Shown here piece after piece: positions 41,523-43,085 of a stretch of DNA of 64,000 nucleotides. Below the pieces are notes generated by a model that did not search any database, was not told where the DNA came from, and saw nothing but the letters and a program-made list of their open reading frames with translations. Source of the DNA: Escherichia coli (GTDB lineage Bacteria; Pseudomonadota; Gammaproteobacteria; Enterobacterales; Enterobacteriaceae). The translations under genes and the position numbers were made by a program. Location of the stretch: assembly GCF_030013595.1 (NCBI RefSeq), contig NZ_CP122768.1. The stretch is one strand, 5' to 3'. Each line of letters opens with the position of its first letter. Positions within the stretch are counted from its first letter, which is position 1.

Positions 41523-41586
41523 GAGCTATTAACTATTTGCCGGATGCGGCGTAATGAACTGAACCCCAAAACCTGGACAGTTTCAG

Positions 41587-42309
41587 TTAACCGGCTTTTT
41601 GATGCTCAGTCCGGTATTCTACCGGACTGAGTCCCCCAAGACTGAGTTTTATTCTTTTTTGATTCCAGTAAGTTATGTATTCGTTAACGGCATTTTCCAG
41701 CTCTTCTACATTTCTGTAGTCCCGGCGATAGTACATTTCTTCTTTCAGGTGACCAAAGAAGTTCTCCATTACCGCATTATCAAGGCAGTTGCCCTTGCGC
41801 GACATGCTCTGCACTAACCCTCTGTCCGCCAGGGCGGACTGATAACTTTTTATCCGGTAATGCCATCCTTGATCACTGTGGAGCAGCGGTTTCTCCCCTT
41901 CAGCAAGGCTTTCCAGCCCCTTATTTAACATCCGCTTCACCAGCTCCTCTGTAGGCCTGCAGGCAGTTTCCCACGCCACGATTTCCCCGTTAAACAAATC
42001 AAGTATCGGGGACAGGTACAGTTTTTGTCCGCCAGCCCTGAATTCGGTGATATCTGTCACCCATTTCTCACAGGGAGCTTCCGCTTTGAACTGCCGCTGA
42101 AGGATATTTTCTGCAGCGAGTCCCATATTTCCCCGGTAAGACCGGTATTTCTTCAGGCGCACAGGAGACTTCAGGCCGAGCTGTTGCATCAGTTTTCGCA
42201 CCGTTTTGCCACTGAACTTAAGACCTCTTTTCTGAAGCTCACAATGGATCCGCCGGTACCCATAACATCCCCGGTGTTCATGGAAGATGGAGGCTATGAG
42301 CTGTTTCAC
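41587..42309 (-). CDS. IS3-family transposase OrfB (DDE integrase core)
   Basis: 240 aa with DDE-type rve motifs. Confidence 0.85.
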   Translation of the reverse strand: MKQLIASIFHEHRGCYGYRRIHCELQKRGLKFSGKTVRKLMQQLGLKSPVRLKKYRSYRGNMGLAAENILQRQFKAEAPCEKWVTDITEFRAGGQKLYLSPILDLFNGEIVAWETACRPTEELVKRMLNKGLESLAEGEKPLLHSDQGWHYRIKSYQSALADRGLVQSMSRKGNCLDNAVMENFFGHLKEEMYYRRDYRNVEELENAVNEYITYWNQKRIKLSLGGLSPVEYRTEHQKAG

Positions 42310-42413
42310 ATCAGCATACTTGTCCTTAGCCTTCTGCAGTGACAGCTGGTAGTACAGCGTGCTTCTGGCCAGCCCTGCAGCCTTTAACAGGTCAGACTGG
42401 CAGTGTCCGCACC

Positions 42414-42944
42414 TCAGGCTCCGGATGACTTTCGTTTTTTCTCCAGCTCCTGGCGCTTTTTTTCCAGGAGATGCTCCTGCATGGCTTTCAGATATGCATT
42501 TTCTGCGCGAAGATAACGCAGCTCATTCTTCATCTCTTCCGGCGTCATGTTTGCCTCGTTTTCATGGGTATCATCAGAACGGGTCATGCTTTTCTCCTTC
42601 CTGCGCCTGATAAAGGCCTCATTACCAGATTTGCGGTAGCCTTTTATCCAGTTTTTAACCGTGTTGTGGCTGGGAATGTTAAACCGGGCAGCTACCCGGG
42701 GTAGAGACTCAGAATGCCCGAGAGCATAAAGAACCACGCAAAGTTTATCTTCAGGAGAATAGCTACGCTTGTGTCTGCAATCCAGTGCACGAGGACCGTG
42801 AAGAAGAAAAAGATTAATCCAGTGTGAGAGGCTGGTGTGAGAAAGTTGAAAGAGTTTTGCCGTAGAAATGATGCCTGCATGACCAGCCAGGTAATGATTT
42901 ACAGCGGCAAGTTTTACTTCAAATGAATGTTTCATAAACTGCAC
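42414..42944 (-). CDS. IS3-family transposase OrfA (HTH + leucine zipper); A-run slippery site near its 3' end for OrfAB fusion
   Basis: 176 aa; GAAAAAAAG-type slippery run at ~42420-42450. Confidence 0.8.
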   Translation of the reverse strand: MQFMKHSFEVKLAAVNHYLAGHAGIISTAKLFQLSHTSLSHWINLFLLHGPRALDCRHKRSYSPEDKLCVVLYALGHSESLPRVAARFNIPSHNTVKNWIKGYRKSGNEAFIRRRKEKSMTRSDDTHENEANMTPEEMKNELRYLRAENAYLKAMQEHLLEKKRQELEKKRKSSGA

Positions 42945-42986
42945 CTTCAGATGTCAGATTATGTCCAACATTTGGGGTGCAGTTCA

Positions 42987-43085
42987 GTAAACGCCTTATC
43001 CGGCCTACGGTTCGATGCGATTTGTAGGTCGGATAAGATGCGCCAGCATCGCATCCGACAATAAGTGCCGAATGCGACCTACATT
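42987..43085. repeat. REP/BIME palindromic units (the same cluster the IS interrupted; left remnant at 41538-41554)
   Basis: gccttatccggcctac and gtaggtcggataag…gcatccgaca palindromic units. Confidence 0.6.

Follow-up and report, generated by a model that had tools for sequence, protein, structure and literature searches.

Experiments have demonstrated that the insertion of IS1397 is specific for REPs, those of E. coli as well as those of other enterobacteria; it is the transposase that sets this target specificity (PMC1525189, PMC3184786). ISKpn1, a member of the IS3 family from Klebsiella pneumoniae, is a REP-targeting relative of IS1397 (PMC1525189); it targets Klebsiella-type palindromic units and, by its description, differs in sequence from the element studied here, which matches copies named IS1397 at up to 100%. 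IS621, of the IS110 family, likewise inserts into E. coli REPs (PMC1525189, PMC3184786), on the 3′ side of the REP and outside its inverted repeats, not in the loop (PMC3184786). Moreover, the family of IS621 is unrelated to that of IS1397: its recombinase is of the DEDD type, and the element lacks terminal inverted repeats and makes no duplication of its target. IS150, IS911, IS2 and IS3 share with our element the OrfA/OrfB organisation, the A AAA AAG -1 frameshift, TG...CA ends, duplications of 3-4 bp and an rve domain with DD(35)E, but unlike it they are not known to have REP-loop specificity. The primary studies of IS1397 are reportedly those of Bachellier et al. 1997, Clement et al. 1999 and Wilde et al. 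2001 and 2003, and the original description is said to give a length of 1432 bp. The element described below resembles IS1397 in its 99.9-100% identity to RefSeq copies of that name, its 1432 bp, its imperfect TG...CA repeats, its orfA/orfB -1 frameshift, its insertion in a REP loop and the 3-4 bp duplications. Compared with IS1397 in general, its site (ybhC-ybhJ, with GTAA) is rarely occupied and a lambdoid prophage lies 1.36 kb away.

The window, by which we mean the whole stretch of 64,000 nucleotides of E. coli DNA that was analysed, carries a complete element with its transposase on the minus strand. The neighbouring genes are convergent, ybhC at 40239-41522 on the plus strand and ybhJ at 43099-45384 on the minus strand, and the element lies between their 3′ ends. 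We conclude that this is almost certainly IS1397, in a copy that is intact and probably able to transpose; it occupies the loop of a Y-type REP belonging to the ybhC-ybhJ BIME, with GTAA duplicated and no gene disrupted. The features of the element are as follows.

41555-42986, minus strand: complete copy of IS1397, with full-length matches of 99.9-100% to RefSeq copies annotated IS1397.
41555-41579, plus strand: IRR, the transposase-distal inverted repeat TGAACTGAACCCCAAAACCTGGACA, matching the other end at 21 of 25 positions.
42962-42986, minus strand: IRL, the transposase-proximal inverted repeat TGAACTGCACCCCAAATGTTGGACA, matching the other end at 21 of 25 positions.
42414-42935, minus strand: orfA, which begins with the ATG at 42935 and encodes 173 aa that include two HTH_28 DNA-binding domains; the PGAP CDS of the identical locus begins at the equivalent position.
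41587-42462, minus strand: orfB part of OrfAB, with HTH_21, rve, rve_2 and DD(35)E, from domain and profile searches.
42456-42462, minus strand: A AAA AAG, the heptamer for the programmed -1 frameshift, read in the zero frame of orfA.

A megablast search with the 1432-bp query against 5,426 complete E. coli genomes returned 7,615 places in 3,485 genomes. Within this set, 1,707 genomes hold places that cover at least 80% of the IS1397 element, and for 1,327 records the best place is at least 99% identical to the element of the window. The two genomes closest to the window each hold 6 places that match the IS. The best 25 records matched at 99.9-100% over 1432/1432 bp and all 25 are annotated "IS3-like element IS1397 family transposase"; the name IS1397 is taken from this RefSeq/PGAP annotation of identical copies. 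Since full-length matches of 99.9-100% identity exist, a chance pattern is excluded. By the ISfinder convention, isoforms share at least about 95% nucleotide identity with the named element, and the identity to RefSeq copies of that name lies above this value. Moreover, the translation of the orfB frame scored 330.3 bits against the IS3-family profile NCBIfam NF033516 (cut-off 160), whilst orfA matched the N-terminal part of the same profile (positions 1-90). The original prediction had given the element 1432 bp, which is exactly what 41555-42986 measures, and had ventured the name IS1397, with which the nucleotide identity, the IS3-family profile, the insertion in a REP and the 4-bp duplication all agree.

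The internal organisation is that of a complete member of the family. The terminal inverted repeats TGAACTGAACCCCAAAACCTGGACA and TGAACTGCACCCCAAATGTTGGACA (the second reverse-complemented) match at 21/25 positions, which refines the imperfect repeats of about 25 bp that had been predicted, and the element begins TGAACTG... and ends ...CAGTTCA, which gives it the TG...CA ends usual in the IS3 family. The two overlapping frames with an A-run slippery site that had been noticed earlier are orfA and orfB on the minus strand, the heptamer running from 42462 to 42456. For orfA, PGAP uses the ATG at 42935 and not the upstream GTG at 42944. A -1 slip at A AAA AAG gives a predicted OrfAB fusion of 449 aa, the length implied by the joined PGAP CDS at the identical locus of strain HCP5S3_I2 (1349 nt, two pieces, 'programmed frameshift'). 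Pfam searches identified HTH_28 twice in OrfA, followed by HTH_21, rve (E = 7e-21) and rve_2 (E = 2.5e-20). The catalytic triad consists of D295 (WVTDITEF), D355 (LLHSDQG) and E391 (NAVMENFF), and the 35 residues between D355 and E391 make it a DD(35)E motif. RNA folding predicts stable hairpins (-31.4 kcal/mol) in the 90 nt after the heptamer, a raw value that is given no weight. A scan for sigma-70 consensus promoters between 41400 and 43200 gave none above threshold, which fits the weak native promoters that are normal for IS3-family elements; by eye, a candidate promoter can be read in IRL (TGAACT, 17 nt, CATAAT; 8/12 consensus positions). An Rfam scan gave no match inside or near the element.

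The target of the insertion can be read directly, and its parts are these.

41551-41554: left copy of the target-site duplication GTAA, from alignment with the K-12 empty site.
42987-42990: right copy of the target-site duplication GTAA, from alignment with the K-12 empty site.
41539-41554, plus strand: left half of the interrupted Y-type REP, GCCGGATGCGGCG followed by the loop GTAA, from alignment with the K-12 empty site.
42987-43008, plus strand: right half of the interrupted REP, GTAA followed by ACGCCTTATCCGGCCTAC, from alignment with the K-12 empty site and the half-site pattern.
43024-43059, minus strand: second, inverted and intact REP of the BIME, GTAGGTCGGATAAGATGCGCCAGCATCGCATCCGAC, from inverted-repeat pairs and the half-site pattern.

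Removing the IS and one GTAA from the window leaves GCCGGATGCGGCGTAAACGCCTTATCCGGCCTAC, which is base for base the uninterrupted REP found between ybhC and ybhJ in both K-12 MG1655 and strain Z1323HEC0462, with a single loop GTAA. Because the flanks in the window overlap on exactly those four bases relative to the empty site, GTAA is a true target-site duplication. The comparison with the K-12 interval therefore confirmed the empty site, and the claim that the flanks reconstitute a REP with gtaa duplicated on each side holds in both strains. Of the 5,426 complete E. coli genomes, 4,865 contain the reconstructed empty site as one continuous place that covers 80% or more of the query, whilst 12 have an occupied ybhC-ybhJ site. 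A strict full-REP pattern had no match in the window, owing to the fact that its single Y-type REP is split, and a half-site pattern found just the two REPs of the ybhC-ybhJ BIME, in which the interrupted REP is the leading unit. The copy number of this BIME varies: MG1655 (4766-4998 of the compared segment) carries an extra 92-bp REP pair relative to window positions 41523-43098, and this K-12 pair is absent from Z1323HEC0462 as well as from the window. A partial third REP-like unit, GCCGAATGCGACCTAC, is present at 43067-43082, at the ybhJ-proximal edge of the BIME and just downstream of the ybhJ stop.

We examined 11 other insertions of the element, namely nine further loci and two further events at the ybhC-ybhJ REP. 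All 11 are in REP loops, and 10 of them have target duplications of 3-4 bp, with junctions read from the fetched copies (GAAT, GTGA, TAA, AAAC, TGA, AAAT, TTT, TCAA and AAC). At every one of the nine loci below, the IS is placed between both stem arms of a REP.

acs-yjcH: duplication GAAT; orientation relative to the REP as in the window.
hybG-yghU: duplication GTGA; orientation relative to the REP as in the window.
yijO-eptC: duplication TAA; orientation relative to the REP as in the window.
yfaL-ubiG: duplication AAAC; orientation relative to the REP as in the window.
torD-cbpM: duplication TGA; orientation relative to the REP as in the window.
cca-bacA: no recognisable duplication; orientation relative to the REP as in the window.
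avtA-ysaA: duplication TTT; orientation relative to the REP inverted.
ygcQ-ygcP (Z-type REP): duplication TCAA; orientation relative to the REP inverted.
ompL-yihN: duplication AAC; orientation relative to the REP as in the window.

The first six loci, from acs-yjcH to cca-bacA, were taken from hits whose ranking used a query with REP flanks and are therefore a biased sample, whereas the last three came from a search with the IS only. A fixed orientation relative to the REP was considered and dropped: the IS-only search gave avtA-ysaA and ygcQ-ygcP inverted and ompL-yihN in the same orientation, and with two of these three loci inverted the orientation is not fixed. The cca-bacA copy, from strain Z1323HEC0475, lies in a REP with no recognisable duplication (left ...GCGGCGTAAGC, right TGGCGTCTTATCC...), and may have arisen when two IS1397 copies recombined. 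Taken as a whole, the REP-loop results agree with the published experiments on IS1397 cited above.

The element lies beside a prophage. A lambdoid prophage occupies roughly the first 40 kb of the window, up to 40177, or 40192 if the att core is counted, and a lambda-type int gene (39034-40104) adjoins the att core.

40178-40192, minus strand: lambda att core GCTTTTTTATACTAA, exact, at the int-proximal junction; context, outside the IS.

From the att core to IS1397 is 1,362 bp, in line with the distance of about 1.4 kb from attL given by the original prediction, and the junction, which is the one close to int and faces gal (ybhC, ybhJ ... pgl), is consistent with attL. Lambda and phage PhiR11_1 cover 66-70% of the 25 kb adjoining the junction, with an identity of 97.8%; coverage of just 66-70% marks the prophage as a mosaic relative, distinct from lambda itself. 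A cIII thermoregulator element is located at 34440-34498. Adjacent tRNA-Thr (TGT) and tRNA-Asn (GTT) genes were also observed in the prophage, at 24080-24235 on the minus strand. To our knowledge lambda itself has no tRNA genes, and this pair therefore belongs to a non-lambda segment of the prophage. Strains HCP5S3_I2 and LCP30S3_I5 have near-identical IS and flanks, yet in both bioA-ybhB-ybhC is contiguous with no prophage. Insertion and lysogeny are therefore separate events. The combination of the GTAA-type junction with the prophage was not found in any complete RefSeq E. coli genome, and at this locus there is no evidence of a functional link between the IS1397 insertion and the prophage.

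Comparison of copies points to repeated use of this one REP. Fourteen copies from other loci or strains differ from that of the window at 0 to 14 positions in 1432 bp. The length is 1432 bp in 12 of these; the other two measure 1431 and 1430 bp and carry the annotation of frameshifted pseudogenes. At the ybhC-ybhJ site, two pig isolates share the GTAA duplication with the window; their flanks are identical to its flanks over about 496 nt, and their IS differs at 1 position. That single difference from the same-site copy of HCP5S3_I2 is, by eye, synonymous (ACT vs ACG, Thr). In the SCU-482 group the IS sits 2 bp further along with the duplication AAAC, and there are 14 IS and 8 flank differences. 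The group of EC12 and Z1323PEC0014 has a variant REP with the duplication AAAT, 2 bp from the position in the window, and shows 12-13 IS and 25 flank differences; the same-site copy of EC12 has a 1-bp deletion and is annotated 'frameshifted'. In BH100 (NZ_CP024650.2, segment 1-4946) the right junction is again GTAA, whilst the left is a different, inverted REP beside fiu and not ybhC, and this copy beside ybhJ carries two deletions and is annotated as a 'frameshifted' pseudogene. The fiu / IS / ybhJ arrangement indicates an IS1397-mediated rearrangement between two copies. In BH100, 39 places match the flank-containing query, some of which may be REP-only. Given the differing duplications, positions and IS variants, the 12 occupied genomes do not go back to one event, and the data support at least two independent hits on the ybhC-ybhJ REP loop, probably three or four. 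Repeated hits on one REP are what is expected of a REP-specific IS and are not new biology.

These comparisons also bear on how the site came to be occupied in the lineage of the window. An occupied ybhC-ybhJ allele might have been imported by homologous recombination, or the site filled by recombination between IS copies, without transposition in that lineage. The match to the two pig isolates that lack the prophage, whose flanks are identical over about 496 nt and whose IS has one difference, is compatible with such an import, and BH100 (fiu, IS, ybhJ) shows that IS1397 copies recombine. However, this would touch just the inheritance within the lineage, since the perfect 4-bp duplication marks the founding event as a transposition; moreover, common ancestry with the pig isolates, with lysogenisation afterwards, is the simpler history. 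We therefore regard import as unlikely, and retain transposition into the REP loop as the origin of the occupied site.

By what route would such an insertion arise? From what is known of the IS3 family, most translation of orfA would end at its own stop codon, and ribosomes that slip into the -1 frame at A AAA AAG would join orfA to orfB to give the predicted 449-aa OrfAB DDE transposase. OrfAB would then act by copy-out/paste-in, as in IS911, IS2, IS3 and IS150: one strand would be cleaved and transferred to form a figure-of-eight, which replication would resolve into a circle with abutted inverted repeats. The circle would integrate into a REP loop, directed by the REP-recognising transposase, and staggered cuts 3-4 bp apart at the loop would yield the duplication. 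By analogy with these relatives, we infer that a circular intermediate with a promoter at its junction is formed, that the frameshift is used in vivo and that the copy in the window may be active at present.

Could the element instead be a decayed, immobile relic of IS1397, with the GTAA repeat and the REP halves as historical traces? Same-site copies elsewhere, in EC12 and BH100, are indeed pseudogenes, and no strong promoter was detected within the element. However, weak native promoters are normal in the IS3 family, and the copy in the window is full length: it retains its two inverted repeats, orfA and orfB are open, and the heptamer as well as the DDE triad is in place. The one difference from the HCP5S3_I2 same-site copy is synonymous, and an identical second copy stands at another locus in that nearest genome: the avtA-ysaA copy of HCP5S3_I2 has 0 differences from the IS of the window. 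Such a second copy suggests that the element transposed recently. A relic is therefore decidedly unlikely, and we continue to read the element as an intact IS1397.

That it is a distinct, related IS3-family element (ISKpn1-like, or an unnamed member of the IS150 group) merely resembling IS1397 is hardly credible: the word 'family' in the PGAP product name leaves room for some divergence, but in more than 1,300 records the best place is at least 99% identical, those listed are named IS1397 and match at 99.9-100% over 1432 bp, the 14 compared copies from other loci or strains differ at just 0 to 14 of 1432 positions, and both the length and the REP-loop target agree with what is known of IS1397.

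In summary, the element is an already described mobile element and nothing substantive deviates from the published biology of IS1397, and therefore the finding is already known. With the IS 1.36 kb from attL, an aberrant (gal-type) excision of the prophage would package IS1397 together with ybhC. That the ybhC-ybhJ REP is a recurrent natural hot spot from which gal-type excision spreads IS1397 with ybhC between hosts by specialised transduction is, taken as one proposal, very improbable, and the transduction route is pure speculation. The importance of the locus is mainly one of correct annotation, as a textbook case of a target-specific insertion sequence. The insertion lies between convergent genes and interrupts no coding sequence, and the REP/BIME that it splits may serve as a transcript stabiliser or terminator. 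IS1397 also puts a mobile region of homology beside a prophage junction, and its copies can drive rearrangements, of which BH100 provides an example at this same locus. Moreover, the occupied or empty state of the REP, together with the exact duplication, could be a marker of lineage.
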